64,000 nt of DNA, taken from the NCBI GenBank assembly GCA_017608025.1, contig JAFCGM010000002.1, positions 6,250-70,249 on the forward strand, given 5' to 3'. This document shows, piece by piece, positions 16,841-56,364 of the stretch. Every line of letters begins with the position of its first letter. Positions within the stretch are counted from its first letter, which is position 1. Position numbers and translations under genes: made by a program. The notes beneath the pieces are model-generated. The model was not told the origin of the DNA. It searched no databases and saw only the letters and a list, made by a program, of their open reading frames with translations. The DNA is from Candidatus Pacearchaeota archaeon. Its GTDB lineage: Archaea; Nanobdellota; Nanobdellia; UBA10117; JABICX01.

Positions 16841-17619
16841 TTCTTATTATTCTCCTTTTTGCTATCTTGTGTTTTTGGTTTGTTTTTTGTTTCAGGCTTT
16901 TTTGATTCTGATTCTTTAGTTTGTTTGTTTTCTTTGTTAGGGGCGGTTTCTTTTGCTACAGTCCTTCTGCTGAAGGGACCCACAGCAGTGCTATCTTCGC
17001 CTGGCTCGATATCACTTTTATTTTCTTTGTTAGGGGCGGTTTCTTTTGCTGCTTTTTTTATTTTGGACAAAATCTCCTGCTTTTTCTTTTCATCAATTTT
17101 TTTCTTCTTTTTAATATCTGCAACTTCCTTGTCTTTTTTCTTCAGCTCTTCTTGTCTCTTTTTTTTCTTTTCTGCTTTTTCTTTTTTCTGCTTCTTTCTT
17201 TTTTCATAAGACTCTTTTATTTTCCTTATTTCAGAGTCAAGGTTTCTTATGTTTGAAAATGATATTTTTTTGCTTTTTGCTTTTTCGAGAATTTCAAGGC
17301 GTTTCTTGCTTCCTATTTTTGAAGACAAAATTGCGAAATTTTTCTCTGGATTGAAGTTTTTTAAATCATTGTGATTTTCAACTCTAAAAGGAGTTTTTCC
17401 TTCTTCATTTGCATGCCTTAGAATTGAAATTGTTTTGAATCCAATTGAAACCATCTTTGGTTTTCCTCGTCTTCTAAGCCTTAATTTTGACTGAACTCCG
17501 CGAGGCTTTCTCCACTTTGTTCCAAGCCGTTTTCTCCTGTGAGATTCCTGCCTTTTGAATTCTGGCATTTTCTTTTTTATTTTTTTCTTCTGCTTGGAAA
17601 GTTCTTTTAATGATTTCAT
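16837..17619 (-). CDS. rpl32e: Ribosomal protein L32e (eL32) with ~140-aa K/E-rich C-terminal tail carrying an in-frame repeat-element insertion
   Basis: eL32 core (RRKRLGTKWRKPRG...) followed by a low-complexity tail. Tail contains ...EDSTAVGPFSRRT... flanked by an exact 30-bp duplication. Confidence 0.85.
   Translation of the reverse strand: MKSLKELSKQKKKIKKKMPEFKRQESHRRKRLGTKWRKPRGVQSKLRLRRRGKPKMVSIGFKTISILRHANEEGKTPFRVENHNDLKNFNPEKNFAILSSKIGSKKRLEILEKAKSKKISFSNIRNLDSEIRKIKESYEKRKKQKKEKAEKKKKRQEELKKKDKEVADIKKKKKIDEKKKQEILSKIKKAAKETAPNKENKSDIEPGEDSTAVGPFSRRTVAKETAPNKENKQTKESESKKPETKNKPKTQDSKKENNKK
16958..17020 (-). repeat. Family-A short element (63 bp), in frame inside the eL32 tail
   Basis: gtccttCTGCTGaagggacccaCAGCAGtgctatcttcgcctggctcgatatcac, flanked by exact 30-bp direct repeats (16928-16957 / 17021-17050). 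Confidence 0.85.
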
Positions 17620-19992: not shown

Positions 19993-20515
19993 TGTTTTTT
20001 CCTCCTTTTGAATCAGTTTTTACTGGCTTTATTGTTTTTGTTGATGATTTTTCAATTGCTTGCTTTCTTGTCCTTCCAGCGAAGGGACCCACGCTGGCGC
20101 TATCTTCGCCTTTGGCTCGATAGCTCTTAGATTGTGATGATTTTTCAATTGCTTGCTTTCTCTTCTTGTCAGATAAATCAATATCAATTATTTGAACATT
20201 TGAAGGAGATATTGGGTATTTAATTACTCGGCCTTCTTCTTTTTTGAATTCTGCTTTTCTGACAAAGATTTTGCTCTTTTTTAGAGACACTTTTTCAACT
20301 TCTCCAATCAATCCTTTGAATTGGCCTCTAAGGATTTTTACCTTGTCTTTAACTCGAATTGGAATGTTTCTTGTATTGTATTTTTTTCGCAAATCTTTTG
20401 AAAGTAAAGCAGACATAAACTTTCTTTTTACATGAAGCGGAGAATTGAATCGATATTTCCTCTGCTTTCTAGGCTGTTTGCTTGACTTCCATTTTTTAGA
20501 CCAAAGAGTTTTCAT
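19985..20515 (-). CDS. rpl24: Ribosomal protein L24 (uL24, KOW) with C-terminal tail carrying an in-frame repeat-element insertion
   Basis: KOW motif KVKILRGQFKG. Tail contains ...EDSASVGPFAGRT... flanked by an exact 27-bp duplication. Start taken at MKTLW. Confidence 0.85.
   Translation of the reverse strand: MKTLWSKKWKSSKQPRKQRKYRFNSPLHVKRKFMSALLSKDLRKKYNTRNIPIRVKDKVKILRGQFKGLIGEVEKVSLKKSKIFVRKAEFKKEEGRVIKYPISPSNVQIIDIDLSDKKRKQAIEKSSQSKSYRAKGEDSASVGPFAGRTRKQAIEKSSTKTIKPVKTDSKGGKNNE
20069..20134 (-). repeat. Family-A short element (66 bp), in frame inside the uL24 tail
   Basis: gtccttCCAGCGaagggacccaCGCTGGcgctatcttcgcctttggctcgatagc, flanked by exact 27-bp direct repeats (20042-20068 / 20135-20161). 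Confidence 0.85.
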
Positions 20516-20520: not shown

Positions 20521-20925
20521 TTATAACATTATGCTTGCTGTTTTTGCCACCTGAGACCATCGATATGCAACTTCTTTTGCAATCGGACCTTTAATTAAAG
20601 TACCTTTTGGTGTTCCCAAACGAACATCACGCAAAACAATTCCTGCATTGTCCTCAAATTTAACTTTTGTTCCGTCAGGTCGGGAATATTCCTTTTTTTG
20701 CCGGACAATAACGACAGGAACAACTTGGTGCACCATGTCTGGCTTTCCTGCCTTAACAGCAACAGTAACCAAGTCAGAAACGCCTGCAGAAGCAAGCTTT
20801 CTTGTTCTTGTCTTATAACCGCGAACAGAGATTATCTGTCCAAGTCTTGCTCCTGAATTATCTGCTATGTTAATTACAGTTCCCAAAGGCATGCTTTTTG
20901 ATATTCTTGTTTTTACTGATTTCAT
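20521..20925 (-). CDS. rpl14: Ribosomal protein L14 (uL14)
   Basis: MKSVKTRISKSMPLGTVINIADNSGAR... uL14 sequence. Confidence 0.9.
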   Translation of the reverse strand: MKSVKTRISKSMPLGTVINIADNSGARLGQIISVRGYKTRTRKLASAGVSDLVTVAVKAGKPDMVHQVVPVVIVRQKKEYSRPDGTKVKFEDNAGIVLRDVRLGTPKGTLIKGPIAKEVAYRWSQVAKTASIML

Positions 20926-20936
20926 TTTTTGTCCTC

Positions 20937-21090
20937 TGTCCTTCTGCTGAAGGGACCCACAGCGGTCGTGTAAAGCTTTGCTTCACACAACGGTTTAACT
21001 CTAGTGACTGTCCTTCTGCTGAAGCCACTCATAGCAGTGCTATCTTCAGAAACAAAGTTTCCTTGATAACAGGTATTTAGCATTATAGGA
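20937..21090 (-). repeat. Two tandem family-A elements (A3a 20937-21008, A3b 21009-21090) inserted at the S17 stop / L14 start overlap
   Basis: Flanked by 26-bp direct repeats ttcattttttgtcctctgtccttctg (20921-20946 / 21091-21116) that each contain the ATGA overlap. Confidence 0.8.
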
Positions 21091-21091
21091 T

Positions 21092-21463
21092 TCATTTTTT
21101 GTCCTCTGTCCTTCTGTTTATTGAATCTATTTTTTCATATACAACAAATTTCTTTGTTTTGGAAATTGGCCTGCATTCTGCAATTTTAACTATATCTCCT
21201 TTTTTTGCATTGATATGTTCTGGAAGATGAGCTTTGACTTTTGAGCTTCTTTTTTCATATCTTTCATATTTTGGAATTTTAATGTGCCTTGACCACTTTA
21301 CTGTAACAGTTTTCATCATTTTGTCAGAAACAACTGTTCCTGTAAAGACTCTACCTCTCAGAGGTATGCTTATTTTTGGAGATTTATTATTTTTTTCCAA
21401 TTCATTCACCTTTTGCTTGGTTTTCTCGTGTTTTTTCATTTTTTTATTTTGAGCCGATCCCAT
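21092..21463 (-). CDS. rps17: Ribosomal protein S17 (uS17) with Lys-rich N-terminal extension
   Basis: uS17 OB-fold core. C-terminus ...NRRTEDKK. Confidence 0.85.
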
Positions 21464-22221: not shown

Positions 22222-22303
22222 TGTCCTTCTGCTGAAGGGACCCACAGCAGCTCTACCGAGCAAAGCTCGATAGCGCGAATGGATTCCTTAGTTTTTTTCC
22301 TCC
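22222..22303 (-). repeat. Family-A full-length element (A4) occupying the whole S3-L29 junction
   Basis: Minus-sense: GGAGGaaaaaaaCTAAGGAAtccatTCGCGCTATCgagctttgctcggtagagctgctGTGGGTCCCTTCagcaGAAGGACA then ATG. Its first 16 nt encode the S3 C-terminus and stop. Confidence 0.85.
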
Positions 22304-23606: not shown

Positions 23607-23684
23607 TGTCTTTAAAGCAAAGGACTTGCGCGGGCTCTACCGAGCAAACTCGATAGCGCGAAAGTTCCTTAGTTTTTTGCCTCC
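23607..23684 (-). repeat. Family-A variant element (A5) between S19 and L22, abutting the L22 ATG
   Basis: GGAGGcaaaaaaCTAAGGAACTTTCGCGCTATCgagtttgctcggtagagcccgcgcaagtcctttgctttaaagaca then ATG. Confidence 0.75.
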
Positions 23685-23703
23685 TTTTTAAGATATTTCA
23701 TTT

Positions 23704-24099: not shown

Positions 24100-24180
24100 T
24101 GTCCTTCTAACAAGTTCTTTGTTTGCTAGCCTCCATTATTATTTTTCTATTTATCATTTTTTTACTTGCCGCGTCCTGCT

Positions 24181-24240
24181 CCCTTTTCTTTAGAAAAGAA
24201 AAGGTAAGTTTCCAAAAGAAACTTTTTTGAGCATTGTTAT
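24181..24240. repeat. Family-E palindromic element inserted between L2 and S19 with ~30-bp target duplication
   Basis: cccttttctttagaaaagaaaaggtaagtttccaaaagaaac, flanked by tatcatttttttacttgccgcgtcctg at 24151-24177 and 24243-24269. Confidence 0.75.
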
Positions 24241-24251
24241 CTATCATTTTT

Positions 24252-24965
24252 TTACTTGCCGCGTCCTGATTTTTTAGCTGAAAGCATTCCAACTTTCTGT
24301 CCTGGTGAACGTCCTTTTCTTCTTACAGTTGTTGATGTAGGTCTGTGCCTTCTGTGCGTTCCACCGTGTGGGTGGTCAACTGCGTTCATTGCAACTCCTT
24401 TTACTTTTGAAACAAGCTTGTTTTTTGCTTTTCTTTTGTGGTATGAGTTTCCAGCCTTTATTAAAGGCTTGTTTTTAACTCCAACTCCTGCAACTACTCC
24501 AAGAGATGCATAGCATTCTGGATTTAGTTTTATTTGCCTTTTTGAAGGCATCTTAATTACAATATTTTTCTTTTCTTTTGCAACCAATATTCCAGAAGCT
24601 CCTGCTGCTCTCAAAAGCTTTCCATTTTGTCCTGGAACTTTTTCTATGTTGAAAACTCTTGCTCCGATAGGAATGTCTTTCAAAGCAATTGCATTTCCAA
24701 CTGAAGAGTCTTTTCCTCCATAAAAAACTGTTTGTCCAACTTTGATTCCCATTGGTGCTGGAAGCAAACACATTTGATCATCTTCATATTTTACTATCAT
24801 TAGTGGAGCTGAGTGTCCTACAGAGTTTACAATATCAATAACCTCCCCCTGAAGTATTTCTTTGGACTTAATTGGGTAACGAATTTCTCCAAAATAACGG
24901 TGGCTTGGAGACTTATATCTAGGTGAGCCTTTTCCTCTTCTTTGCGTAATAAGCCTTTTTCCCAT
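24252..24965 (-). CDS. rpl2: Ribosomal protein L2 (uL2)
   Basis: uL2 sequence with a GGTHRRHRP-type C-terminus. Start taken at MGKRLITQRRGKG. The 11 upstream codons in the ORF track are the repeat element. Confidence 0.9.
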   Translation of the reverse strand: MGKRLITQRRGKGSPRYKSPSHRYFGEIRYPIKSKEILQGEVIDIVNSVGHSAPLMIVKYEDDQMCLLPAPMGIKVGQTVFYGGKDSSVGNAIALKDIPIGARVFNIEKVPGQNGKLLRAAGASGILVAKEKKNIVIKMPSKRQIKLNPECYASLGVVAGVGVKNKPLIKAGNSYHKRKAKNKLVSKVKGVAMNAVDHPHGGTHRRHRPTSTTVRRKGRSPGQKVGMLSAKKSGRGK

Positions 24966-25074
24966 GTCCTTCTCGCGAAGGGACCCACTCAGCCGCAAAA
25001 TCGGCTGGCGCTTTCATCAGGCAGATGTTGGTCTGATGCCTGATAGCGCGAAAGTTCCTTAGTTTTTTGCCTCC
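24966..25074 (-). repeat. Family-A long element (A6, 109 bp) between L23 and L2, abutting the L2 ATG
   Basis: GGAGGcaaaaaaCTAAGGAACTTTCGCGCTATCaggcatcagaccaacatctgcctgatgaaagcgccagccgATTTTGcggctgagtGGGTCCCTTCgcgaGAAGGAC then ATG. Confidence 0.85.
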
Positions 25075-25099
25075 ATTATTTTTATCATTATTCTTCTCC

Positions 25100-28396: not shown

Positions 28397-28562
28397 GGTT
28401 TTCCTAAAAAGCCTATTCTAATTTAAAAGTGTTTCTATAGAAAAAAATAGAACACTAACTATAATATGTAAAAAAAGTAAGTATCACAAATTGTCAAATC
28501 CATAATTATATCTGCTACAGGATTTATTTTACTTTAAAAAGTGTTTGTATTCCCAAAGCTTT

Positions 28563-28656
28563 CTTAGAAAGAAAGCTTGCAAAGAACAACATTTTTCTTA
28601 GAAAGAAAGCTTGCAAAGAACAACATTTTTCTTAGAAAGAAAGCTTGCAAAAAATT
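28563..28656. repeat. Tandem repeat, 34-bp unit x ~2.8, each unit a palindrome (gctttctt-aga-aagaaagc)
   Basis: cttagaaagaaagcttgcaaagaacaacattttt repeated head-to-tail. Confidence 0.85.
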
Positions 28657-28661
28657 GAAAT

Positions 28662-28714: not shown

Positions 28715-28889
28715 AATAGCTCTTTTTCTTTTCGAGAACATTTTCTTTTTCAAAAGAAAAGGTTCAAGCGAGCCCGGAGGGATTCGATTACCTCGGCAAA
28801 CCCTTTAAAAAAGTGTTTGCATTCCCAAATGTTTTTTTCGAGCGAAGCGAGACTTTTTAGCAACTTGCCTTTTTTTGAAAAAGGCAGAG

Positions 28890-29052
28890 CGAGCCCGGAG
28901 GGATTCGAACCCTCGATCTACAGCTAACTCCAGCACATTAAAGTCTTTTAGCTTATCTTTGCAGGCATCGCATTTTGTTTGCCTGCTCAAAGCGCCAGCC
29001 AATTTTGCGGCTGTAGGAGGCTGTCGCCCTATCCAGACTAGGCTACGGGCCC
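28890..29052 (-). tRNA. tRNA-Arg(CCT) with 88-nt intron at 37/38; the intron carries a family-A repeat module
   Basis: Acceptor GGGCCCG/CGGGCTC. Anticodon stem ACAGC/GCTGT with loop CTCCTA^A. T-arm GAGGG-TTCGAAT-CCCTC. Intron contains CAGCCG-CAAAAT-TGGCTG plus a long stem. Confidence 0.65.
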
Positions 29053-29585
29053 AGTTAAAGAAAACTGCAATATCTTAATAAAACTTGCCAATTCACTACC
29101 GAAATTCTTTAATCTATGTGTTTCTATAAAATTAACATGAAAAACAAACATAGATTAATTGCTTTCTTTTTAGTACTTGTTTTTGTAGTAAGCTTCTTGT
29201 TTTTTGGAAGGATTTTCAGCATAATAGATTCTCTTTCTGATTTAACAGGCGCGGAAATTCTAAAGACTCCAGAAGAAAAGTCAGAAGAATACTCATCTGT
29301 CTGCGAGCAGAAAGACTTTTCAAAAAATTATCGCGACTGTATTTACTGGGAACAGGAAGGGGAAAAACAAGATTCTCTTTCAAAGCTTTCAGACGAAGCA
29401 GTGGAATCTTTTTGCAAAGAGCTATTTAGAATTTACAAAACTTGCGAATAGAAACATTTTTAACTGATATTTTGGGTTTAACTCATATCAGATTTGCTCT
29501 GAGCTAACTTTCGACTGTTGAACAGCAGCGGGATGTCTTTGCCAGCGCTTTTCTGAAAAGAGATATGCATCATGATCTAATGCTC

Positions 29586-29678
29586 CTTCTCGTGAAGGGA
29601 GTTACATGCGGCTGCAAAATCAGCCGGCACTTTCATCAGGCAACAAAGTACGATGCCTGATTGTGATTCACGAACACA
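29586..29678 (-). repeat. Family-A structured repeat element (copy A7), directly 5' of tRNA-Gly
   Basis: tccttctcgtgaaggga...gcggctg-CAAAAT-cagccg...ttcacgaa. Flanked by a duplicated ~20-bp tRNA-Gly 5' segment (29565-29585 / 29680-29700). Confidence 0.7.
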
Positions 29679-29681
29679 TAT

Positions 29682-29753
29682 GCACCGATGATCTAATGGC
29701 TATGATTCGAGCCTTCCAAGCTCGCTGTCTGGGTTCGATTCCCAGTCGGTGCA
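29682..29753 (+). tRNA. tRNA-Gly(TCC)
   Basis: Acceptor GCACCGA/TCGGTGC+A. Anticodon stem-loop CGAGC-CTTCCAA-GCTCG. T-arm CTGGG-TTCGATT-CCCAG. T6 terminator follows. Confidence 0.85.
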
Positions 29754-30221: not shown

Positions 30222-30340
30222 AGCGCCTGGGGAGATTTGAACTCCCGACATCTTGCTTTCTCGTTTTTTCTGTTAATATTTTTGCGCGAAGCAGAAACGA
30301 GTTACGAGGCAAGCGCTCTACCAGACTGAGCTACAGACGC
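30222..30340 (-). tRNA. tRNA-Thr(CGT) with ~46-nt intron
   Basis: Acceptor GCGTCTG/CAGGCGC. D-arm GCTC-AGTCTGGTA-GAGC. Anticodon stem CTTGC/GCAAG with loop CTCGTAA. T-arm GGGAG-TTCAAAT-CTCCC. Confidence 0.75.
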
Positions 30341-35894: not shown

Positions 35895-36842
35895 TTATTT
35901 TTTCAGCATTTTCTTTTTTCTTATTCTTCTATAAATGAAGAATCCTGTTACTGCAATTACTGCAAACAAAAAATATATTCCATATGGCGCTGGTTTTTGG
36001 GCTAAACCATATTTGTATAGGTCTTTCTGAGAATACACGCGAATATCTATTGTCTGCTCATCCATGTAACTTCTACTGTTTGCATCAGTATATTCAAGTG
36101 TAAATGGAAGAGTTATTATTTTAGTTTCAGGATTTTTTGAATCTGATTTAAAATAAATGTCAAAAACTGCAGTTTCAAAATCATCTGACTCAAGTTCGCC
36201 AACATAAACTTCGTGCGGTGAAAGAACAATGTATTCATCTGTTTCATCAAGTGTTATTGTCAGGTATTTTGTATTTAGTGAGCCTTTATTTACAATGTTT
36301 GTTGTAATTCTTGATTTCTTGTTAAATGATACAGAATCCAAATCTTCAATTCCCACATCAACCCTTGGCTCTCCACCAGTTTTCACTGTTATTGTCACAG
36401 ATGTTTTTTTCATTTCTTTTTCACATTCGCTGTCGCTACATGAAATAAATTCAAGAGAATAATCTCCTGCTTTTGTGTTCTCATTTACAAAAAGCCTGTA
36501 ATCAAGAAGCTTATTCGAATTTGTTCCGATGATTCCTGTGCTTTTTATTGAATCTTCTCCCGGAACAAGGGAAAACGGATATTCTGGATTTACTTTTATG
36601 TATGCATTATCCAATTGCTCATTTCCAATATTCTGGACAGATATCCAAACGCGCAGAGTGTTGTCTGGCTCAGCAGGAACTGGGTCGTAGTCCTTAAGCA
36701 CAACCTTAACATCTGCATTTTCAGCTACAAGGGCCATTGCCGCAAACGGAACTATTACTAAAATTGTAAAAAGTGCGAAAAGCACTTTAATTGCTTTTTT
36801 CATTTTCAACTCTCCCATCTTTAAGATAAAACACTTTCTCAT
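35895..36842 (-). CDS. Exported protein with C-terminal membrane anchor (ABC-transporter-associated)
   Basis: Signal-like N-terminus, beta-rich body, C-terminal TM helix plus RRIRKKK. Co-transcribed with the permease and ATPase. Confidence 0.4.
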   Translation of the reverse strand: MRKCFILKMGELKMKKAIKVLFALFTILVIVPFAAMALVAENADVKVVLKDYDPVPAEPDNTLRVWISVQNIGNEQLDNAYIKVNPEYPFSLVPGEDSIKSTGIIGTNSNKLLDYRLFVNENTKAGDYSLEFISCSDSECEKEMKKTSVTITVKTGGEPRVDVGIEDLDSVSFNKKSRITTNIVNKGSLNTKYLTITLDETDEYIVLSPHEVYVGELESDDFETAVFDIYFKSDSKNPETKIITLPFTLEYTDANSRSYMDEQTIDIRVYSQKDLYKYGLAQKPAPYGIYFLFAVIAVTGFFIYRRIRKKKMLKK

Positions 36843-39009
36843 CTCGAGCTAATTTTTCGAAACGAGAATCGTGAGTTACGATTATTAATGTCTTATTTTT
36901 GTTTTTCCACAAATCAATTAAAATCTTCACAATCTTTTTTCCTGTTTTTGAATCAAGATTTCCTGTTGGCTCATCAGCAAGAATTATTTCTGGATCGTTT
37001 GCAAGAGAGCGGGCAATTGCAACTCTTTGTTGCTCTCCGCCAGACATTTCAGAAGGAAGATGATTTTTTCTGTGCTCAAGGCCAACTATATCCAAAAGCT
37101 CTGATGCTCTTTTAATTCGCTCTTCTTTAGATATATTCTGAAAGACCATTGTAAGAGCAACATTTTCAATTGCAGTAAGGCTTTGAATCAAGTTGAATTT
37201 CTGAAATACAAATCCTATTTTGCTTCCACGAATTTGTGCAAGCTCTGACTCTTCAAGAGAGGAAATGTCTTTTCCATTAAGATATATTTTGCCTTTTGTT
37301 GGAACATCAAGGCATCCAATCATGTTCATTGCTGTAGAATTATGAACAATAAACTCATTTGCTATAAAATTATCTGCACCAGGAACAGTTATGTCATAAA
37401 CTGTTGTCTTTTTATTTATTTTTTTGACTGCAATAACCTTATCCCAAAAAATATCTGAGTCGATTAACGCAGAAAGTTTATCTGTATTGATTTTGTTTTC
37501 TGAAAGAAGATTATTAATCAATTTTAATTTATTCACTGAAGGATTAATTCTTTTAGACTCATATGGATTAAGAACTTTATGAATTCTTCTTGATACTTTT
37601 ACTTTAGACTCTCTTCTAACTTTCTGTAATAATTCTCCACAAGGAATTACATCTACATTCGTATTCTCTTTGTTTTTTAAGTGGCTAAGAAGCCTTTTTT
37701 TCTTATCTGATGAAATAAAGCCAATGTGCTTCTCATACAATTTAAGATTGTTCAATCCAGAAATAGATAATAAATAATAAAATCTATTTGTTTTTTTATT
37801 AAATTTTTTGGGGAGTCTAGAAACAATTCCATACCTCAGAAGCAAATAATTTAATTGAGTGATAAGGTCTTTGCTTGCAAGAGTTATTGCTACTTCTTTT
37901 TTGTTTTTTGAAACATAACCATCACAATCAAACAATGCCCTAATAAAAGCAGCAATTTCTTTGTTAGAACATCTAAAAACAAATTCCGGCAGTTTTATTT
38001 TTCTTGATTTAAGATTTAGAGGAAAATTAAATATTTTATTGAAAAAAATAAGTAAGACCTTATTATTAACAGCTAATCTTGTATCCATAAATTTTTTTGC
38101 ATCAACTTCAAAAATTCGATTTACTAAATAAGAAAATCTCTCATTTATTTTTGGGTCTAAATTTGTAAATTTTATTCCATCCTTATCTAAATTTCCATCT
38201 CCTGCAATAAAGCCATATAGCTCCATTAAATCTTTAGAAATCTTTTTCGGCATTCTTACTTTATTGTGCGAACCTGCAGGAGTTATATAAAAATTACACT
38301 TATATTCAGAAATATCTGTACCACAGTAATCCATAATTTTCTTAAAATTCTCCAATGAAATATTATTATTATGTTTCCAAGCATCATAACTAAAGTAATT
38401 AAATTTCAGTTTCTTGCATAATTCCTTTCCAGAAATCTTTGAATTTTTGAGAAGTTTTCGGATTAATTTGCTTGAATCAAAGAGATATAATCTTTTGTTT
38501 GCACTTGCAAGTTTTAGCAAATCAATTTCTTGTTTTTTTGGTTTTGTATTTATTTTTCTTGCTGTGGCAACAAAAATTCCTTTTTTAAGATTTGTTGCGC
38601 GAATTTCACTGAAGCCATTAGAATCTAAAGTGAAAAAGGGATGTTCTGGAGTACTTACTATTTTTTTGCCTGAAGAAGTTGTAATTTCATAAATCTGATT
38701 CGCTTCTCGTTTATAAAAATCAGAGACTCTGAAAGGTTTAATTTTATTGGATTTTCTATCTAATGCAAGAACTTTATATTTCTTATATTTTCTTTCAAAA
38801 TCTTTTAGATTTATTAAAGAGCCATCTTCCAAAAACAATTTAGTGTCTCCAGTAAGGCATTTTCCACTGCCTGATGGGCCCATTATAACAACAAAATCTC
38901 CTTGATTTACTTTAAGGCTTAGGCCTCGGAGTGCTGGAACTTCCACTGCACCCATTTTATAAATCTTCCAAGCATCTTTGATTTTAATAAGTGTTTTTGA
39001 GGAAGTCAT
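36787..39009 (-). CDS. ABC transporter ATP-binding protein (MacB/LolD-type) interrupted by a 507-aa intein
   Basis: Extein N-part ends GPSGSGK, then intein CLTGDTK...IVHN, then extein resumes [16 protein letters not shown]-like SGGEQQR, Walker B ILADEPT and H-loop all present. Confidence 0.85.
37339..38859 (-). other. Intein with LAGLIDADG homing-endonuclease domain, inserted in the Walker A P-loop (GSGK^ST)
   Basis: Block A Cys1 (CLTGDTKL), LAGLIDADG pair [11 protein letters not shown] / [12 protein letters not shown], terminal HN followed by +1 Ser. Confidence 0.8.
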
Positions 39010-41663: not shown

Positions 41664-41910
41664 CTATAGTCTGATAAGATTTAGAATATTTTTTACCATT
41701 AACGTCAAGGCATTTCCATACATAATATAAAATTAAAGAACCTGTAAGAGTTAATCCTACATTTGCAGCAACAGTAAGTGGTACTGAATCTCCATATTCA
41801 AGAGTTCCATTCTTTACATAATTAATTGCTTCAACAGAAATTGGAAGTAAACTTGAAACTGCTAAATGTGGAAGGTATTGTTTTAAACCCATAATAATTT
41901 TTCTAACCAA
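41644..41910 (-). CDS. Small membrane protein
   Basis: Two TM helices. Confidence 0.3.
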   Translation of the reverse strand: MVRKIIMGLKQYLPHLAVSSLLPISVEAINYVKNGTLEYGDSVPLTVAANVGLTLTGSLILYYVWKCLDVNGKKYSKSYQTIDDEIDG

Positions 41911-41950
41911 AAAAACCTTTTAAAGCTATTGGTTAAAGCGGCTTTGACGA

Positions 41951-42937
41951 TTAAAACGCCTGTTTATAGTCAGGAGCGTCTCTTGGCGAAAAATCAATCT
42001 CAATATCAAAAGAAAAAATAGCTTTCACCAAAATACAAATATTATAAACCAAACATTTCAAATACAATTCATTTACTTGAGATTCAAAGTTCTTAAAATA
42101 TAATTTAGCACCAAACTTACGCTTTAATGCACTGAAGCTTGCTTCTACATTAGACCTTTTGTGATAGTGCTTATAGAATTTACTTCTATTCTTACGGAAC
42201 AGTTCCAATGAAGTTTTCCAAACACCGCTTTTTCTCTTCATTCCACAATTACTTCTGAAAGGAATATATGGAACGCCACCATAATGATGAACCGTCTCTA
42301 AATTATGCCTAGAAGAATATGCTTTATCTCCTAATACTTCATCAATCTTGAAATTCTCAGCAGTTCTTGAAACTAACTTATCAAATTCAGGAGAATCATG
42401 ACATTCACCTGTAGTAATTTCAAGAGAAGTAATTACATTCGTAAAAATCCCACACATTGCATGACATTTAACAAATTTATGCCTGTCATTATATCCGACT
42501 CTTGAATCAAACCATCTCTCATAACTATTAGTTGAGAATCCAGTCGAATCAACTGCAAACCTAGTCTCCAAGTATTTCAAAGGCATAGCAGACATCATAA
42601 GTAAATAATTCAATGTTGGGGTCAAAGATTTTCTTCTCATGTAGTCCGTAACAGAAGAATGATGTGGGACTTTTTTAATATATCCCATATCTTTGAGAAA
42701 CCATAATTGAGATGTAAGTGTTCTTGAAGGCATCCCAAAATATAACTTCATAGCTAGGCAGAAGATTACATCCTTTTGATTGTGCATTGGACGACCTTTT
42801 TTCTTTATTGGTTCCGATACAGTTTCATCCAATAGATTTCTGAGGATTTCAACAAAGAGTCTACCTTCCTTAGTTTGCGCTTTATTGTAGGAAGTCCAGT
42901 CTCTATCTTTTGTGAATTCTTTAATTTTTGATTGCAT
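41951..42937 (-). mobile_element. IS5/IS4-superfamily DDE transposase gene (IS ends not resolved)
   Basis: DDE_Tnp_1-like blocks FAVDSTGF, LGDKAYSS, EASFSALKRKFG. Confidence 0.7.
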
Positions 42938-42959
42938 TTTTCTTTAATTTCCATTTTTG

Positions 42960-43090
42960 ATATATAGACTTTATTAGTCTAATATCTCATTATTATTAGT
43001 CTTTATAAATATTTCGAAAATGTTACTATCTTAGACTAATAACTTTTAGACTAACGAAACATTAATATATGTTTAATTAGACTATTATAT
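42960..43090. repeat. Iteron-like array of TAGACTAAT / ATTAGTCTA motifs, with palindrome tagactttattagtcta
   Basis: At least 5 copies in 130 bp, directly upstream of two small regulatory-type genes. Confidence 0.5.
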
Positions 43091-43306
43091 ATGAACGAAA
43101 AGATTCCTAAAAACGTGTTAAAGGAACTAGAATTTAAGGTTGACAAGAAGCCAATTAGGATTGCTGGAAAAATCATCGCAGAAGCTCATCAAGTTTCAAT
43201 TCGGCTTCCAAAAGAGATTAAAGCTGAATTGGATTTGTCTCAAGGTTCTCATCCTTGCGAGATTGAACTTATTGATAATAAAACATTGAAGGTGCATATA
43301 AAATGA
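43091..43306 (+). CDS. Small hypothetical protein (possible AbrB/SpoVT-like DNA binder)
   Basis: 71 aa. Its stop overlaps the next ORF's start (ATGA). Confidence 0.3.
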   Translation: MNEKIPKNVLKELEFKVDKKPIRIAGKIIAEAHQVSIRLPKEIKAELDLSQGSHPCEIELIDNKTLKVHIK

Positions 43307-43506
43307 AACCAAATTTAAAACCTATTGGAAATAAAGTACTTAGGGTTGTTGTTAATAGACGGACATTTATCAGTACAAAAGAAGTTGCTGAAAAGTCGGG
43401 CGTTTCTTGGAATACTGCTCTAACTTACTTGAGGAAGTTTTACAATAAAGGTTGGTTGTCTAAGAAGTCTGTTGGGAATCGGACTTATTGGAAGGCTAGA
43501 GTGTAA
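43303..43506 (+). CDS. Small winged-helix DNA-binding protein
   Basis: ...FISTKEVAEKSGVSWNTALTYLRKF... helix-turn-helix pattern. Confidence 0.45.
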   Translation: MKPNLKPIGNKVLRVVVNRRTFISTKEVAEKSGVSWNTALTYLRKFYNKGWLSKKSVGNRTYWKARV

Positions 43507-43534
43507 AAAAAAGAAAAATATGACTGAATAAAAT

Positions 43535-43840
43535 TTATTCATATTCAGGCAATTTTCCCAAGTTATCCTCAGCAGTATTATTTCTATCAGTTCTTATGAA
43601 TTTAATATTTCCAATAGTAACAATACCTACATCTTCTCCGTTTTTCCATTTATTATTCTTAAGTGTTGCCGTAACAAATGTTTTTCCGCTTTCAATTAAT
43701 TCAACAACTTTCTCTCTTTTTATTCTTCGTTCATTTGAGAGTTTCTCTCCAGTATCATCTCTAACTTTAACTTCGAGAATATGTCGTTTTTCATCTCTAA
43801 ATTTTACGCCTACGATTGCATAATCCGCCCATTTATCCAT
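43535..43840 (-). CDS. DUF3892-like small protein
   Basis: ...ADYAIVGVKF...ILEVKV... pattern. Low confidence. Confidence 0.3.
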   Translation of the reverse strand: MDKWADYAIVGVKFRDEKRHILEVKVRDDTGEKLSNERRIKREKVVELIESGKTFVTATLKNNKWKNGEDVGIVTIGNIKFIRTDRNNTAEDNLGKLPEYE

Positions 43841-43920
43841 TTAAATCACTATACATCTATTCTTATATCTATTTATAAAAGATTATAGCATTTAAAGTAT
43901 ACTTACTTAAACAGACAAAT

Positions 43921-44358
43921 TTAGAATGTTGTCTTACTTAAATCAATATCTTCTTCTTTTGGATAATATCTTTTTATTTCTTTAAATAACGCATTCAAAT
44001 CATGTAGATAATCACTAACTTCATTAGAAGTAAAATTTGCTTCATAAAAATTTTGATGTAATCCCTTCATATTCCGAATATATTTTCTTAGATATTCTTT
44101 TTTAATTTCTTTCACAAATTCATACATATAATCTATTACTTCTTTATGTTCAGTTAAGCGAATATTACGTGTAATTGCTAATGCTTTTAACGCTAATACG
44201 AAAGAACCCCAGAAAAATTCTGATGCTTTTTCAGGTCTGGTCTCTAGAAATTTAATACCATTCTCATAATATAAATCACTTTTATCTTTATAATGTATAA
44301 AATTTAGTAGTGCTTCACTACTCAATTTTGAGGAAGTTTCCATCTTTATCAAATACAA
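43921..44358 (-). CDS. Hypothetical protein
   Basis: 145-aa ORF with no motif. Confidence 0.3.
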   Translation of the reverse strand: MYLIKMETSSKLSSEALLNFIHYKDKSDLYYENGIKFLETRPEKASEFFWGSFVLALKALAITRNIRLTEHKEVIDYMYEFVKEIKKEYLRKYIRNMKGLHQNFYEANFTSNEVSDYLHDLNALFKEIKRYYPKEEDIDLSKTTF

Positions 44359-44636
44359 TTATCTTGAGTTTCTCTTCAACAATTCCAATATCAACTGATA
44401 CCCTCCAATTTTTATTTCCATTTGGAGGAGCTAATTTAACAACTTTGACCCAGCTATATCCTAATTTCTTTAATCGTTCGATTGCCTTATCCGCAATTAT
44501 TTCTGATGTTACTGTCATAATAAACACCTCTTTGGAACTTTTTATCATAAGAAAGATATTTAAGGATTATGATATTCAAAAGTGACCAAAAAGTTGACTT
44601 CCATACTATTATCTAAACAAATCAAGTATAAAAAGA

Positions 44637-45245
44637 TTATTCACAAACCTCTTCAGTCCTGAACTTTGTAACAGGTCGTGTTTTCTCAACATCTCTGTAT
44701 CGAATTACATTCTCACAGACTTGCTTTGTAGGGATTTCTTCAACATCAAAGTCAGTATAAACCTCTTCAGTAGGAATGTTCTTTACATATTCCCACATAA
44801 AAGTCTGTTCGTCTTCTGGTTCGATGTAATGTCTACGAATTCCACCATCAACTTCTCCACTCATGCCTTGGAAAGTCATTCTGAAAGCCCATCGTCCACC
44901 TTCATCATCCATATTTTTTAGGATAAATGTATAAATATTTTTATCTTTGACGCATTCCCATTCCTTGCAGTCTCTAGTCCAAAAACTTTCTTCAATACAG
45001 TTCTGTTCAATACATACAGTTTCCATATTTACTCCCTGAATAACCTTTGATTTTAAATTAACCGTCTCACATTCTTTGCTTGTGTAAGGTTCGCTTTCGG
45101 TGTAGGTTTCATTAAATTCATACGCTATTTGAACCTCACGACATTCAGGTACAATCGGAAGTGAAACCGTTTGCCCACCCGTAAGACAACCACTAAACAG
45201 AACGATTGTTAAGATTGAGAATATGACAATAAGTGCGGATTTCAT
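44637..45245 (-). CDS. Cys-rich secreted lipoprotein
   Basis: Signal peptide with a lipobox-like LFSGC, plus many Cys/Glu residues. Confidence 0.45.
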   Translation of the reverse strand: MKSALIVIFSILTIVLFSGCLTGGQTVSLPIVPECREVQIAYEFNETYTESEPYTSKECETVNLKSKVIQGVNMETVCIEQNCIEESFWTRDCKEWECVKDKNIYTFILKNMDDEGGRWAFRMTFQGMSGEVDGGIRRHYIEPEDEQTFMWEYVKNIPTEEVYTDFDVEEIPTKQVCENVIRYRDVEKTRPVTKFRTEEVCE

Positions 45246-45624
45246 ATAATTAATGTTTATGTATATTTATTTAAAGTTTATTATAGTTGAATATTTTGGG
45301 AAAGTATTCTTTATTTGATAAAAGAGTTTATTTTTTATAAAATTACTGAGAAAGGGAAGACTGTTCTTGAATTAATTTAGAAATTTATTAATTATTTAAG
45401 TATAACTAAAAGGATTGTAGCTATCGCTAAGCCCCATGTAGCAAAAACAAGCCATTTAGTCCACTTAAACATTTTATATTGAAGATATAAACTATGTAAT
45501 TCTTTTTCATGGTTATCTGCATGTCCATAAAAATTATACGGTTTTTTTCTAAGACTCATTACACCTTCATAGAATTCTTTCATAAATCTAAGAAATCCTT
45601 TATCAAGCGTTCCTTTATCTTCCA

Positions 45625-46104
45625 TCATACAGCACCAATCTTATCAAAATCAATATCTCTTTTTTTAGTTAAGTCTTCAGGAATCCGATATTCTTCCCAT
45701 CTCACTTTTTTCTTTTGTATGGCTTCTTTTAAATTCTGTTCAATCGGAGACAACCATGATTTTCCACTTTTTATTTCAACAAAAACAACTTCTTCAATTT
45801 CTTTCTTATCCATACCTTTGAATACAATTAAGTCGATTGGCTTTCCTACAAATCTACATTCAGTAGGTAAATGCTTAAAATCTGGAAGGAATGGTGCTAA
45901 TTGCTCGGAAAATTGACCTCCGAGAACTGCTCTTGACTTTAGAATTGCATCTTTTCTTTGGTTTGGAAGTTCAGATTCCCAGTATATATCTCGTTTGAAA
46001 GCTCCACTTTTCTGTCCGAAGTTGTATGCTGCGATGATACCAATTAGGAACAATGCGATTACTATTATAATTATGAATTCCATTAAAAACAAGTAGCTAC
46101 GCAA
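45625..46104 (-). CDS. Membrane-anchored PD-(D/E)xK nuclease-fold protein
   Basis: N-terminal TM helix. IDLIVF...VVFVEIKSGKS fits the D...ExK motif. Confidence 0.4.
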   Translation of the reverse strand: MRSYLFLMEFIIIIVIALFLIGIIAAYNFGQKSGAFKRDIYWESELPNQRKDAILKSRAVLGGQFSEQLAPFLPDFKHLPTECRFVGKPIDLIVFKGMDKKEIEEVVFVEIKSGKSWLSPIEQNLKEAIQKKKVRWEEYRIPEDLTKKRDIDFDKIGAV

Positions 46105-46155: not shown

Positions 46156-46860
46156 TCAAAGCTGGTTAAAGCATCTCTTGAAGTTCTTTTCGATCTGTTC
46201 CTCAACATCTTCTGGGGAGAACTTCTTTATTCTGGCAATCTCCCTAATTACTTTTTTTATGCTTGTTTTTGGGTTGTCTGTTATATACGGGAAATCTGTT
46301 TCTGTTAAGATTCGCGAAAGAGGAACTATTTCAACTAGCTTCTTAACTTCTGGATACTTGAAGATGAAAGTGTTGATTGAAAAGTAGAATTTAGACTTTA
46401 TGTCTTCAATTAATTCTGGGTTTCCTGTGTATGAATGAATTACTGCCTTTCCATTATAATTTTTAAGCATTTTTGCAACTACTCCTTCTGCCTGCCTGCA
46501 GTGTATAATCACTGGCTTGTTTATCTGCTTTGCAAGCTTCAGAATTTCGCTGAAGTATTTTTTGTGCACAGGCCTTTCTGTTTTTGATGAATATTTATAG
46601 TCAAGCCCTACTTCGCCGACTGCGACTATTTTGTTTTTTTTATTTTTTATTTCTTCAAACTCGGCATAAATTTCCTTTTCAAGATATTCGGAAAATCTTG
46701 TTGGATGGAAACCGATTGCTGCAAAAACATTTTCATATTTTTCAGAAAATTTTAGAACTTCTTTATTTGACTCTGGGTCAAGACCGTTTACTATTACAGG
46801 AATGTTCTTGTATTTTTTAAAATCTTTTTCTTTTGCATGTGAATGTGCGTCGTATAGCAT
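46156..46860 (-). CDS. tatD: TatD-family deoxyribonuclease/hydrolase
   Basis: MLYDAHSHA..., HCRQAEG, VIHSYTG and TETDFPYI TatD motifs. The upstream extension in the ORF track is repeat-derived. Confidence 0.8.
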   Translation of the reverse strand: MLYDAHSHAKEKDFKKYKNIPVIVNGLDPESNKEVLKFSEKYENVFAAIGFHPTRFSEYLEKEIYAEFEEIKNKKNKIVAVGEVGLDYKYSSKTERPVHKKYFSEILKLAKQINKPVIIHCRQAEGVVAKMLKNYNGKAVIHSYTGNPELIEDIKSKFYFSINTFIFKYPEVKKLVEIVPLSRILTETDFPYITDNPKTSIKKVIREIARIKKFSPEDVEEQIEKNFKRCFNQL

Positions 46861-46914
46861 TACACAATAACCTCGATTATTACTCTTATTAATGAGTAAT
46901 GTATGTACCAGTCC

Positions 46915-46980
46915 TTCTAGCCAAGGGACACAAGCTGGTCGTGTACAGCAGAGCTGCACACAACTTAAACCTTAATCTCA
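46915..46980 (-). repeat. Family-A short element (66 bp) flanked by 39-bp direct repeats
   Basis: ttctagccaagggacacaagctggtcgtgtacagcagagctgcacacaac... between attattactcttRttaatgagtaatgtatgtaccagtcc copies at 46876 and 46981. Confidence 0.7.
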
Positions 46981-47019
46981 ATTATTACTCTTGTTAATGA
47001 GTAATGTATGTACCAGTCC

Positions 47020-47078
47020 GTTTCGCCCGGACTGTGCGAAAGCGCATTGCTTCGCAATGCACTATACTTTTATTTCAG
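47020..47078. repeat. Family-C structured element (copy 1), nested next to the family-A copy
   Basis: gtccg-tttcgcc-cggac hairpin plus gcgcattgc-ttc-gcaatgcac hairpin. 96 bp between flanking repeat copies. Confidence 0.65.
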
Positions 47079-47832
47079 TTATTACTCTTGTTAATGAATG
47101 ATGTACATACCATTCAAACTCATTTATTACATTATATTTTGATAGGTCTAATTTAAGGGTTTTGGGTCGAATGAAAATTATCTTGTGATTTTTCTTCACG
47201 ATTTTATGTGCTTCTTCTAAAAAAGAGTTGTAAAGAGTTTTTATTTTTTTGCCGGCGAGAGTCGAGCTTTTTCCATATGGAGGATCGCAAACAATTGCTT
47301 CAATTTTATCAGAGAACAATGAAGATATGTTTGTAGCATCTCCAATAATCACCTGCCAATCTTTTCCTTCCCTTATGTTATATTTATCAGAATAAAATCT
47401 AAGATTGGTTTTGGAAGCTTGTGCAGCTTTCCATTTAATATCTATTCCTATTCCTTTAATTCCAAGAATAGCACTTTCCAAAATAATAGAACCTGTTCCG
47501 CAAAAGGGATCTACAATTTGATTCTTAGCTTCAGACAAGTTAATTAAAAGACGGGCAAGCTTTGGTTTTAGTGCTGTTGGATGAAATGCTGGCTTTTTCT
47601 GAGGTTCTCGGTCCAGAAACTGACCAGATTTTCTTTCCCATATGCAATAATCATTTAAGTAAGCTTTTTTTATTCCTGCGCTTTTTACACACAAATCAAT
47701 TATTTTCTTAGAAGGAATTTTTTTGCTGAAAAATACATAATTTTCTTTTAATTTAGAATTAACATTAAAAAGGATATCAACCTCCCGCTTAAATGCGGAC
47801 AGGTTTTCTCCAGAAATTCTCAGCTTAATCAT
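47062..47832 (-). CDS. tRNA (guanine-N2)-methyltransferase, Trm11/Trm-G10-like
   Basis: DPFCGTGS (motif I) and DPPYG (motif IV). Confidence 0.6.
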   Translation of the reverse strand: MIKLRISGENLSAFKREVDILFNVNSKLKENYVFFSKKIPSKKIIDLCVKSAGIKKAYLNDYCIWERKSGQFLDREPQKKPAFHPTALKPKLARLLINLSEAKNQIVDPFCGTGSIILESAILGIKGIGIDIKWKAAQASKTNLRFYSDKYNIREGKDWQVIIGDATNISSLFSDKIEAIVCDPPYGKSSTLAGKKIKTLYNSFLEEAHKIVKKNHKIIFIRPKTLKLDLSKYNVINEFEWYVHHSLTRVITEIKV

Positions 47833-51999: not shown

Positions 52000-52328
52000 A
52001 ATCTGGAAAAAAAATTGCAAAAGAAAGAATTAACATTCTTTTTCGAGAAGCTGAAAAAATTTTTAATGAAAATCCTGCTCTTTCAAAAAGATATGTTTTT
52101 ATTGCAAGAAAAATCGCTATGAAAAGCAATATAAAACTAAGTTCTGAGCAGAAAAGAAAAGTATGCAAAAAGTGCAGGGCTTTTCTTTTTCCTGGAAAAA
52201 ACTGTATTGTTCGAACAAATTCAAAAACAAAATCTGTTGAATATCTTTGCAAGGATTGTGGAAATAAAAATCGATACGGATATTCTAAAGAAAAAAGTTC
52301 TTTGAGAAGGCGCTCGCTGAAAGAATAA
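51996..52328 (+). CDS. rnp4: RNase P protein subunit Rpp21 (Rpr2)
   Basis: CKKCRAFLFPGKNCIVR...CKDCG zinc ribbon with a basic N-terminus. Confidence 0.8.
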   Translation: MKSGKKIAKERINILFREAEKIFNENPALSKRYVFIARKIAMKSNIKLSSEQKRKVCKKCRAFLFPGKNCIVRTNSKTKSVEYLCKDCGNKNRYGYSKEKSSLRRRSLKE

Positions 52329-52505
52329 CTTTAAATCTGCTGGCTTTTCTTTTAGAAAAAGAAAACCTAAGTTGCCAAAAGAAAACTAATTAATTCTGAA
52401 AGAATAACTTTAAATCTGCTGGCTTTTCTTTTAGAAAAAGAAAACCTAAGTTGCCAAAAGAAAACTAATTAATTCTGAAAGAATAACTTTAAATCTAGTG
52501 AGTGT
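52316..52505. repeat. 85-bp direct repeat x2.2 that begins inside the Rpp21 stop region; each unit contains a family-E element
   Basis: gaaagaataactttaaatctgctggcttttcttttagaaaaagaaaacctaagttgccaaaagaaaactaattaattct x2, plus a third 20-bp partial. Confidence 0.85.
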
Positions 52506-52805: not shown

Positions 52806-52862
52806 GTCCGTCTCGCCCGGACTGTGCGGAAGCGCACATACGCTAACGCGTAGTGCACTGTA
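52806..52862. repeat. Family-C structured element (copy 2)
   Basis: gtccgtctcgcccggactgtgcggaagcgcacatacgctaacgcgtagtgcactgta. Same hairpin positions as copy 1, with compensatory changes. Confidence 0.65.
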
Positions 52863-54278: not shown

Positions 54279-54395
54279 CTGTCCTTCTGCTGAAGCCATC
54301 CACAGAGCCCTTTTGGAAAAAGCGCTCGCGGAAAACGGCAAATGCGGTCGTGTAAAGCTTTGCTTCACACACGGTTTAATTCTGGTTTTAGTCCT
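54279..54395 (-). repeat. Family-A element (copy A9) filling the thrS-PLD intergenic region
   Basis: ctgtccttctgctgaagccatccacag...gcggtcgtgtaaagctttgcttcacacacgg... The gtgtaaagc/gcttcacac hairpin is shared with A3a. Confidence 0.7.
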
Positions 54396-54412
54396 TATTC
54401 TAAAGATATTGC

Positions 54413-56119: not shown

Positions 56120-56193
56120 TGTCCTTCTAGTGACGGGACCCACGCTGGCTTTACTGAACAAGCTTGATAGCGCGAAAGTTCCTTATGTCCTCC
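56120..56193 (-). repeat. Family-A element (copy A8), forming the thrS 5' leader
   Basis: Minus-sense: GGAGGacataaggaacTTTCGCGCTATCaagcttgttcagtaaagccagcGTGGGTCCCgtcactaGAAGGACA then ATG. A TTTATA box abuts its 5' end at 56194-56200. Confidence 0.75.
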
Positions 56194-56364
56194 TATAAAT
56201 TGTTTAGAAATACGGCTATTTAAATTATTCTCCGTTGCCCTCAATAAAATTAATGGGCGACAAAAGCGCCAGCTGATTTCGCGGCTGTGTGGGGCACTCA
56301 CCGTTAATAGCCATAAAATTCTTTATTGAAGAAGATTTAAAAGGTTTGTTGTAAAAAGCAGATT

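Follow-up and report, generated by a model that had tools for sequence, protein, structure and literature searches.

The 64,000-nucleotide (nt) stretch analysed here, referred to below as the window, covers positions 6,250 to 70,249 of contig JAFCGM010000002.1 (assembly GCA_017608025.1) from a Candidatus Pacearchaeota archaeon. It is archaeal, with a GC content of 33%, and encodes L32e, an archaeal-type L24, an Hjc-type resolvase, SepF, RtcB and PCNA; the sequences nearest to its ribosomal proteins come from Woesearchaeota/DPANN. The subject of this study is the junction between two minus-strand genes, gene X (47062-47832) and, after it, tatD (46156-46860), where the tail of gene X occurs in three copies with two short structured elements, assigned to families A and C, between them. 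The features of the junction are as follows.

46156-46860, minus strand: tatD (TatD-related DNase), 234 amino acids; Pfam PF01026, E=1e-57.
46860-46910, minus strand: copy 1, duplicate of the gene X tail, reading WYIHYSLIRVIIEVIV and a stop codon; from register alignment and relatives.
46911-46964, plus strand: family-A element, very probably the younger insertion, with head GTCCTTCTAGCCAAGGGACACAAGCTGG and hairpin GTCGTGTACAGCAGAGCTGCACAC; covariance-model hit.
46965-47015, minus strand: copy 2, duplicate of the gene X tail, reading WYIHYSLTRVIIEIKV and a stop codon; from register alignment and relatives.
47016-47061, plus strand: family-C element, very probably the older insertion, with three hairpins and the end TGCAC; fold z = -2.1 on the plus strand and -2.7 on the minus strand.
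47062-47112, minus strand: copy 3, the functional end of gene X, 16 codons and TAG, reading WYVHHSLTRVITEIKV and a stop codon; from register alignment and relatives.
47062-47832, minus strand: gene X, an RMKL/Trm-G10-like methyltransferase, 256 amino acids; Pfam PF01170, E=2e-25.

Aligned in register, the repeated unit is 51 nt long and runs from the complement of the stop codon (TTA/TTA/CTA) to ...ACCA. On the gene strand, each of the three copies corresponds to the final 16 codons of gene X followed by a stop codon. An earlier note, made from the letters of this DNA, had described a 39-nt string at 46876-46914 and 46981-47019 that differs only at one A/G position. This string was confirmed, no match to it arose in 100 dinucleotide shuffles, and the diverged third copy placed at 47079-47113 is present. 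The repeat length of 35-39 nt given there is too short, and the repeat is the 3' end of gene X itself, with no dedicated 'repeat' sequence. The copies are spaced 105 nt (1 to 2), as claimed, and 97 nt (2 to 3), where 96 had been reported. With a 51-nt repeat, the inserts of 66 and 59 bp become 54 nt for family A (46911-46964) and 46-47 nt for family C (47016-47061/62). Both inserts do start with GTCC, and part of this shared GTCC may be junction microhomology: the GTC at this site is possibly target sequence, since a relative (contig L001) reads GAC immediately before the boundary at TGG, and 3-4 junction nt are ambiguous.

The native 3' end of gene X is copy 3, whose C-terminus ...EFEWYVHHSLTRVITEIKV agrees with relatives. 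Homologues of gene X at 77%, 72% and 69% identity are all 256 amino acids long, and part of them carry the JGI name tRNA (guanine10-N2)-dimethyltransferase. Copy 2 keeps the ancestral ...GAGATTAAGGTTTAA, the same as in L001. The TAA of copy 1 overlaps the tatD start codon (TAATG), which matches the ancestral junction; this copy has diverged, and GAGG now lies 10 nt upstream of the tatD ATG. Copies 1 and 2 are 94% identical, each of them is 85-87% identical to copy 3, and the tail holds a 7-bp inverted repeat, ATTACTC..GAGTAAT. A reading of the tail copies as intron flanks or alternative 3' exons was rejected: no bulge-helix-bulge (BHB) motif is apparent, the flanks are direct repeats and the 97-nt spacing is out of frame. 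An ACACAA microhomology at the return junction of family A was also discarded; copy 2 matches the ancestral L001, so copy 1 gained ACACAA later.

The uninterrupted target that the earlier note proposed to look for is present in related genomes. L001, whose gene X protein is 77% identical, has 6 nt between the gene X stop codon and the tatD ATG, and in L002-L004 (72%) the two genes overlap by 4 nt; nothing lies between gene X and tatD in these four contigs of two related lineages. It is thus very probable that gene X and tatD were separated by the serial insertion of two short elements (46-54 nt) that are GC-rich, non-coding, able to form hairpins and unrelated to each other. In all likelihood family C was inserted first and family A later, because the copies that flank A are 94% alike and each is only 85-87% like copy 3. 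With similar confidence, we consider that each insertion duplicated the same 51-nt target and that the A event copied the whole earlier copy again. Because each event duplicated the 51-nt tail, gene X keeps an intact end and tatD its upstream context, including the stop/start overlap. The arrangement earlier called nested is serial, and sequential insertion into the same target with renewed duplication is borne out by the empty sites in relatives and the graded copy identities.

An independent insertion into the same gene X tail was found in another relative.

L005 (ENA ERZ27248172), 1973-2162, same gene X tail: an AT-rich hairpin insert of 72 nt; the flanking duplication is exact over at least 59 nt.

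The second copy in L005 begins at the same TGG as the window copies. The L005 contig stops within this second tail copy, perhaps because the population contains both filled and empty alleles.

A covariance model of family A gave 11 hits, all on the plus strand, and heads of the form GTCCTTC-N4-GAAGGGACCCAC were found 11 times with 0.6 expected by chance. The 10 heads besides that at tatD all start with GTCC save one CTCC, which has a compensating change. Two mutually exclusive hairpins are possible in the head. Hairpin 1 (GTCCTTC/GAAG(G)GAC) is conserved, with one compensatory G-C to C-G change, and hairpin 2 covaries (CTGCTG/CAGCAG vs CCAGCG/CGCTGG vs CTAGTG/CGCTGG). In the covarying stem, 14 cells are altered on both sides, which was equalled in 0 of 500 shuffles. 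With G.U pairs counted, this stem is 88% paired on the plus strand and 76% on the minus strand, and this difference points to the plus strand as the one that would be folded. Behind the head stand alternative modules, so that copies are modular or chimeric; the hairpin module of the tatD-site copy occurs again at 20962-20998 and 54344-54380. The long form of family A consists of head, two hairpins, GATAGCGCGAAAGTTCCTTAG and a T-run, and has a closed three-way fold (z = -2.9).

Family-C hairpins at the tatD site are GTCCG..CGGAC, GUGCG-AAAG-CGCA and CAUUGC-UUC-GCAAUG. A second family-C copy at 52806-52860 also starts with GTCC and has both ends and two hairpins in common with the first; the third hairpin is fully compensated between the two copies (TACGC-TAAC-GCGTA at 52806-52860). 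The third family, P, is AT-rich and terminator-like, and is usually found immediately behind stop codons or tRNA 3' ends.

Rfam searches at gathering and permissive thresholds returned no family for A or C, and no CRISPR (clustered regularly interspaced short palindromic repeats) family at threshold. By inspection, no C/D boxes were present, which excluded C/D-box small RNAs; a kink-turn reading failed on GA pairs in the wrong register, and hammerhead and riboswitch readings were likewise rejected. The family-A head gave only 31 single chance hits, in unrelated bacteria, among GTDB representative genomes, and one chance hit, in GC-rich DNA, among JGI metagenome contigs. IMG/VR viral contigs held no match to A, C or the intron-like module, and four open-frame translations of family A had no match in 5.8 billion proteins. 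Neither A nor C thus turned up in any of the public collections searched.

One relative of family A resides within a tRNA gene.

28924-29013, minus strand: 90-nt intron of tRNA-Arg(CCU) (tRNA 28890-29052), at the canonical position.

Starting at intron nucleotide 1 and with the same sense as the tRNA, this intron is homologous to the core of the long family A, at 91% over 34 nt (E=3e-7). This homology suggests either that the intron was gained by insertion of an element or that the element family was derived from an intron. The intron has a canonical BHB by inspection; at the A and C copies in mRNAs no BHB motif was seen by inspection, no dedicated scan having been made, and their flanks are direct, not complementary, repeats. 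A tRNA at 30222-30340 (minus strand) has a 47-nt intron at the canonical position that is unrelated to A or C, and ARAGORN missed both intron-containing tRNAs. A partial family-A hairpin module, reversed, lies at 56263-56293 (minus strand) in the divergent promoter region of the threonyl-tRNA synthetase (ThrRS) and radical-SAM genes; it is the sole minus-strand relative of family A besides the tRNA intron. The all-plus orientation of family A may reflect selection against a sense-strand T-run terminator. It could not be tied to replication, as the GC skew of the window simply tracks the gene strand.

We then scanned the window for local direct repeats, taking as signature a short structured insert flanked by duplicated target, which measures 11-53 nt in the window. 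The signature was found at 8 or more window sites besides tatD, with several insert families, and it affects ribosomal-protein junctions and tRNA ends. Altogether there are 10 duplication-insert-duplication events in the window, with periods of 90-121 nt and of 170 nt for a double insert. The other sites, together with one insertion that has no duplication, are listed here.

4813-4980, plus strand: 62-nt insert at tRNA-Leu; exact 53-nt duplication from the T-loop to the 3' end plus a 36-nt trailer.
16924-17050, plus strand: family A (16958-17016, 59 nt) in the C-terminal tail of L32e; 34-nt duplication, in frame (93 nt).
20042-20161, plus strand: family A (20069-20134, 66 nt) in the C-terminal tail of L24; exact 27-nt duplication, in frame (93 nt).
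20921-21116, plus strand: two family-A elements at the S17/L14 junction, which in relatives is an ATGA overlap; 26-nt exact duplications.
22222-22287, plus strand: long family A placed precisely between the stop codon of S3 and the ATG of L29, with no duplication; from outgroup comparison.
24148-24268, plus strand: family P, 59 nt, an AT-rich hairpin at the L2/S19 junction; 31-nt duplication of the L2 stop region.
28767-28908, plus strand: 100-nt insert at tRNA-Arg(CCU); 21-nt duplication from the T-loop to the 3' end.
29565-29698, plus strand: long family A (29583-29680, about 100 nt) at tRNA-Gly, preceded by a duplicate of the first ~17 nt plus leader.
Downstream of 5S rRNA: family A with a diverged duplication of about 24 nt.

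In L24 (20069-20161) and L32e (16958-17050), element and duplicated target together form a 31-codon in-frame insertion. The element is read in the same frame in both proteins, GEDS[TA][AS]VGPF[SA][RG]RT, and relatives are without these insertions; the L24 of a relative has the peptide that is duplicated in the window only once. As the frame is open, both inserts are presumably translated. Within the duplication at S17/L14, 9 nt match the beginning of family A exactly (GTCCTTCTG), and the C-terminus of S17 reads ..NRRTEDKK before its stop codon (21106-21116). This 9-nt match could be junction microhomology, or else a remnant of an older copy that is now coding. At tRNA-Gly the duplication comprises 11 exact nt, or about 17-21 nt with mismatches included.

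The 3' end of SecY is present in three copies at 12518-12822, with two different inserts and a 70-nt exact duplicate; it is a second multi-event site like tatD, with a more complex history. The window also has perfect tandem repeats without foreign inserts, at 52317-52496 (79 nt x 2.3, a terminator-like P hairpin) and 28560-28661 (34 nt x 3), which suggests a general tendency to local duplications of 30-100 nt.

The outgroup ribosomal-protein operons (L038, L040) are compact: S17 and L14 overlap, and the L2/S19 and L23/L2 junctions are 1-9 nt long. Over 51 kb, these operons showed no GC islands, no such duplications and no match to the family-A covariance model. Orthologous sites are thus empty in L001-L004, L038 and L040, which amounts to an insertion polymorphism among relatives.

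The duplications measure 11, 21, 26, 27, 31, 34, 51, 51, 53 and at least 59 nt, the last being that of L005 and the two values of 51 coming from the in-register alignment; there is none at S3/L29. A negative correlation between duplication and insert length (r = -0.74, n = 10) was set aside as largely a measurement artefact, because the two lengths add up to the period and duplications that have diverged come out too short; only the clustering of the periods (90-131 nt) stands. At S3/L29, outgroups read ...AAAGGAGACAAAAAATAA ATGGCA and the window reads ...GGAGGAAAAAAACTAA, 66 nt of family A, and ATGGCA. The family-A copies upstream of L22 (23607-23690) and L2 (24966-25077) include some 20 nt from the tail of the S3 gene (AAGGAGGCAAAAAACTAA) and end in T-runs, and the S3/L29 element was probably their donor. 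The 5' end of family A in the plus sense is always (N0-3)GTCC, and the 3' end varies, at times with donor flank. Inspection of the sequences revealed no terminal inverted repeats in A or C: the family-A ends (GTCCTTC... and ...CACACAAC or ...TTCCTTAG) are not inverse complements, nor are those of family C (GTCCGTT... and ...AATGCAC). A few unmatched nt occur at the junctions. Microhomology amounts to 9 nt at S17 and 3-4 nt at tatD, with none at the cleanest sites, L24 and L32e, and is not decisive. Five family-A copies (22222-22287, 23607-23690, 24966-25077, 56120-56195 and 54281-54400) reach to within 0-2 nt of a minus-strand gene's start codon (L29, L22, L2, ThrRS and a PLD-like gene), and they part a Shine-Dalgarno-like GGAGG from the ATG by 66-110 nt.

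Judged from sequence comparison, the tatD site is one case of a lineage-specific, genome-wide insertion of several structured element families with long target duplications. None of the transposition mechanisms known accounts for this process well. Every inserted family looks like a stable RNA species, either intron-like or similar to terminator or 3'-end hairpins. We tentatively propose, with less than even confidence, that a polymerase copied the elements in at staggered nicks, probably from RNA templates; whether serial insertion and polymerase copy-in together make up the right account as a whole is, in our judgement, evenly balanced. Such copy-in at a staggered break would involve no classical cut-and-paste by a transposase. 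One target strand would be nicked and its 3' end would prime copying of the element template, most likely a stable plus-sense small RNA, derived from an intron for family A and from terminator or 3'-end hairpins for families P and C. The second strand would be nicked tens of nt away, and fill-in of the stagger would yield the long duplication. The fixed GTCC end would correspond to the 5' end of the template, and the variable other end, with donor flank up to T-runs, to read-through or template switching. Insertions would survive only if the duplication preserves the two neighbouring genes, or if the addition is in frame within a disordered tail.

This mechanism is favoured because the duplication length is variable and sometimes zero, because terminal inverted repeats are absent and one end is fixed and the other variable with donor flank, and because copies are chimeric or modular with unmatched nt at the junctions. 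It is favoured further by the bias of G.U pairing to the plus strand, by the homology of the long-A core to a transcribed tRNA-Arg intron in the same sense, by the terminator-like position of family P, and by the lack of a transposase with matching ends nearby, the only insertion sequence (IS) in the window being unrelated. The earlier suggestion of one mechanism for families A and C is likewise favoured, as A, C, P, other inserts and a relative have the same architecture, and it falls short of proof.

Several observations weigh against copy-in from RNA. To our knowledge, no target-primed reverse transcription is known in archaea, and a scan of about 70 window open reading frames (ORFs) gave no match to a reverse transcriptase (RT), Cas1/cas, integrase or HUH-nuclease family, with several ORFs matching nothing. 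Families A and C are known from one metagenome-assembled contig alone, folding energies did not distinguish the plus from the minus strand, and the five family-A copies that abut start codons (0-2 nt) are without any duplication. Both tatD-site events and the L005 event reuse the boundary directly before TGG, and the window events also reuse the stop-codon boundary. Random second-strand nicks would not predict such reuse at the tatD site; selection could explain a first-event duplication that reaches the stop codon, not the recurrence of both boundaries. The junction microhomology at S17 and tatD would fit DNA template switching equally well.

Template switching is accordingly the first alternative to be weighed. 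In a process like microhomology-mediated break-induced replication or fork stalling and template switching (MMBIR/FoSTeS-like), a strand stalled in replication or break repair would copy a hairpin element elsewhere and return upstream, with no RNA and no mobility machinery. The 9 nt common to the S17 tail and the element start, and the GTC common to target and elements at tatD, are the microhomology it expects, and co-copied donor flank, chimeric copies and a duplication length that is variable or zero suit it as well, as do tandem duplications of comparable size, free of foreign inserts, that this genome also contains (52317-52496, 28560-28661 and 12518-12686). However, the best-preserved recent events (L24, L32e) have no junction microhomology, and the GTCC end is precise in 11 of 11 heads (one reads CTCC) whatever the target. 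Moreover, for 11 or more copies of a 55-110-nt sequence to arise over 40 kb, a distant single-stranded DNA template would have to be reached again and again, and neither the strand asymmetry in G.U pairs nor the homology to a transcribed intron is predicted. We therefore regard template switching as unlikely.

The elements could also be non-autonomous DNA transposons resembling transposable elements of the miniature inverted-repeat kind (MITEs), mobilised in trans by a transposase or nuclease with unusually long staggered cuts. They are multi-copy, short, structured, non-coding, flanked by direct target duplications and absent from relatives, and sequence-specific cleavage would suit the boundary reuse at tatD. 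We nevertheless find this quite unlikely: the terminal inverted repeats are missing, the duplication has no fixed length, being absent in places and otherwise 11 to at least 59 nt long, one end varies and transduces donor flank, and the unrelated families A, C, P and others give the same signature. We know of no transposase family that produces duplications of 20-60 nt. The sole IS of the window, with a DDE_Tnp_1 transposase (41951-42937), has ends unrelated to the elements, and a link between them was rejected. This IS lies in an island of about 4.5 kb (41664-46104) between a wyosine (Taw1-like) gene and tatD, together with DUF3892, PaREP1, a 202-amino-acid ORF without assigned role, and Hjc; L001 has only one small gene between tatD and the Taw1-like gene. 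Elsewhere in the window, an ABC-type ATPase gene (36787-39009, minus strand) is split by an intein with a LAGLIDADG homing-endonuclease domain.

A CRISPR-adaptation-like or site-specific integrase is very unlikely in our view. It would attack a defined segment at either end, in this case the 51-nt tail with its partial palindrome, and duplicate it again with each insert, much as Cas1-Cas2 treats a CRISPR repeat or as attL and attR come about at tRNA genes, in keeping with the repeat-insert-repeat-insert-repeat layout, the identical boundaries in two successive events with one boundary common to L005, and the 7-bp inverted repeat in the tail; two tRNA duplications also start in the T-loop, the classic integrase crossover region. 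Yet the 'spacers' are members of repeated families, 46-100 nt long and not of one size, each locus has a duplicated segment with its own sequence and length, some copies lack a duplication, and the scanned ORFs matched no cas gene or integrase. The 53-nt tRNA-Leu duplication, moreover, holds 36 nt of non-conserved trailer, which a phage attachment site (attP) could not match.

Tandem duplication or unequal crossing-over of the tail, followed by unrelated capture or divergence and without any mobile insertion, is highly improbable. The genome does have plain tandem repeats, and direct repeats promote unequal exchange; such exchange should however have given identical inserts, and A and C are mutually unrelated, each has copies elsewhere, and relatives have nothing between the genes. 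We give almost no credence to mis-joined strain variants in a short-read metagenome assembly, even though the locus comes from a single metagenome-assembled genome contig and the L005 contig ends inside its second copy, since the three copies diverge (94%, 87%, 85%) in a pattern that fits age and that collapse or expansion would not give, the same architecture recurs at 10 or more loci with in-frame, gene-preserving outcomes, and the independent L005 assembly from another study shows the same kind of event.

Returning to polymerase-mediated, RNA-templated copy-in, the insertions have struck the operon that is most conserved in a reduced archaeal genome, and a tRNA intron is a homologue of one family. 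If a polymerase or RNA were indeed involved, this would provide a testable mechanism for the spread of archaeal tRNA introns, would let compact overlapping operons tolerate insertions since the duplication repairs both neighbouring genes, and would form a prokaryotic parallel to the retroposition of short interspersed nuclear elements (SINEs) or to CRISPR repeat duplication. A bolder proposition, which we hold to be doubtful, is that a DPANN retroposition-like (or other nick-primed, polymerase-mediated) pathway copies stable small structured RNAs (excised RNAs like tRNA introns, and hairpins of terminators or 3' ends) into staggered nicks with 20-60-nt duplications, and that the same pathway seeds tRNA introns, extends ribosomal proteins and parts coupled genes. 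Were it true, Archaea would have their first SINE-like system, and archaeal intron gain a concrete mechanism. Such events also matter for annotation, as they leave behind pseudo gene ends and fragments of tRNAs and give universal marker proteins insertions that are specific to a lineage.

As far as could be found, these element families and the signature of variable, often very long duplications are undescribed, and known systems resemble them in part. Prokaryotic short interspersed elements are thought to borrow a transposase, leaving short duplications of fixed length. L1/Alu-type retroposition produces variable, possibly long target duplications, a defined 5' end, 3' transduction, template-switch chimeras and extra junction nt. 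The elements here are like SINEs and long interspersed nuclear elements (LINEs) in all these features (variable duplications, defined 5' end, 3' transduction, chimeras and extra junction nt) and in a source like a small structured RNA. They differ in that the scanned ORFs hold no matching RT or endonuclease, there is no A-rich tail, duplications are longer on average and boundaries are reused at one site. For the reused boundaries the closest analogy is CRISPR adaptation: Cas1-Cas2 integration, including off-target 'neo-CRISPR', has a similar repeat-insert layout, with successive integrations and renewed duplication of the same partly palindromic segment of about 30-50 nt. In contrast to CRISPR, the inserts here are repeated structured families of 46-100 nt, the duplicated gene end differs at each locus, and no cas match was found in the scanned ORFs. 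Among organellar elements, yeast mitochondrial GC clusters are GC-rich hairpin elements in an AT-rich compact genome. Repetitive hairpin-forming elements of sponges are GC-rich and invade an AT-rich compact organelle genome at intergenic sites, occasionally in frame (PMC2800124). Unlike the present elements, these are organellar and have target duplications of only a few nt, and the sequences are not related.

What defines MITEs is the presence of terminal inverted repeats and of a short target duplication whose fixed length is set by the partner transposase, and Rickettsia palindromic elements (RPEs) are often inserted in frame in protein genes and translated (PMC10969869). Like both, the elements described here are short, non-coding, multi-copy and structured, lie in intergenic regions and in frame within genes, and are absent from the corresponding sites of relatives. 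They differ from MITEs in lacking inverted termini, in a duplication of none or 11 to at least 59 nt, in a variable end with donor flank, and in that no partner IS was found in the window; from RPEs they differ in the archaeal host, and they have no Rfam match and an element peptide without match in 5.8 billion proteins. The elements that integrate into archaeal tRNA genes (SSV/pNOB8-type, and the Caldiarchaeum tRNA-Thr fragment) are kilobase-sized, encode a recombinase and leave partial tRNA duplicates (PMC3293823, PMC4033280). Copies of the tRNA from the T- or D-loop to its end stand as direct repeats there as here, and an intact tRNA is kept; the inserts in our case, however, are 62-105 nt and non-coding, the duplication runs into non-conserved trailer, and ends of protein genes are hit too. 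In Thermoproteales, as cited in PMC4033280, similar tRNA intron sequences occur at different places of the genome, an apparent transposition (Fujishima et al. 2010), for which no mechanism or target duplication is known to have been described. The tRNA-Arg intron homologous to the long family-A core is the counterpart here; in contrast to the Thermoproteales introns, most copies lie outside tRNA genes, antisense to protein genes, and have target duplications and an extra head module.

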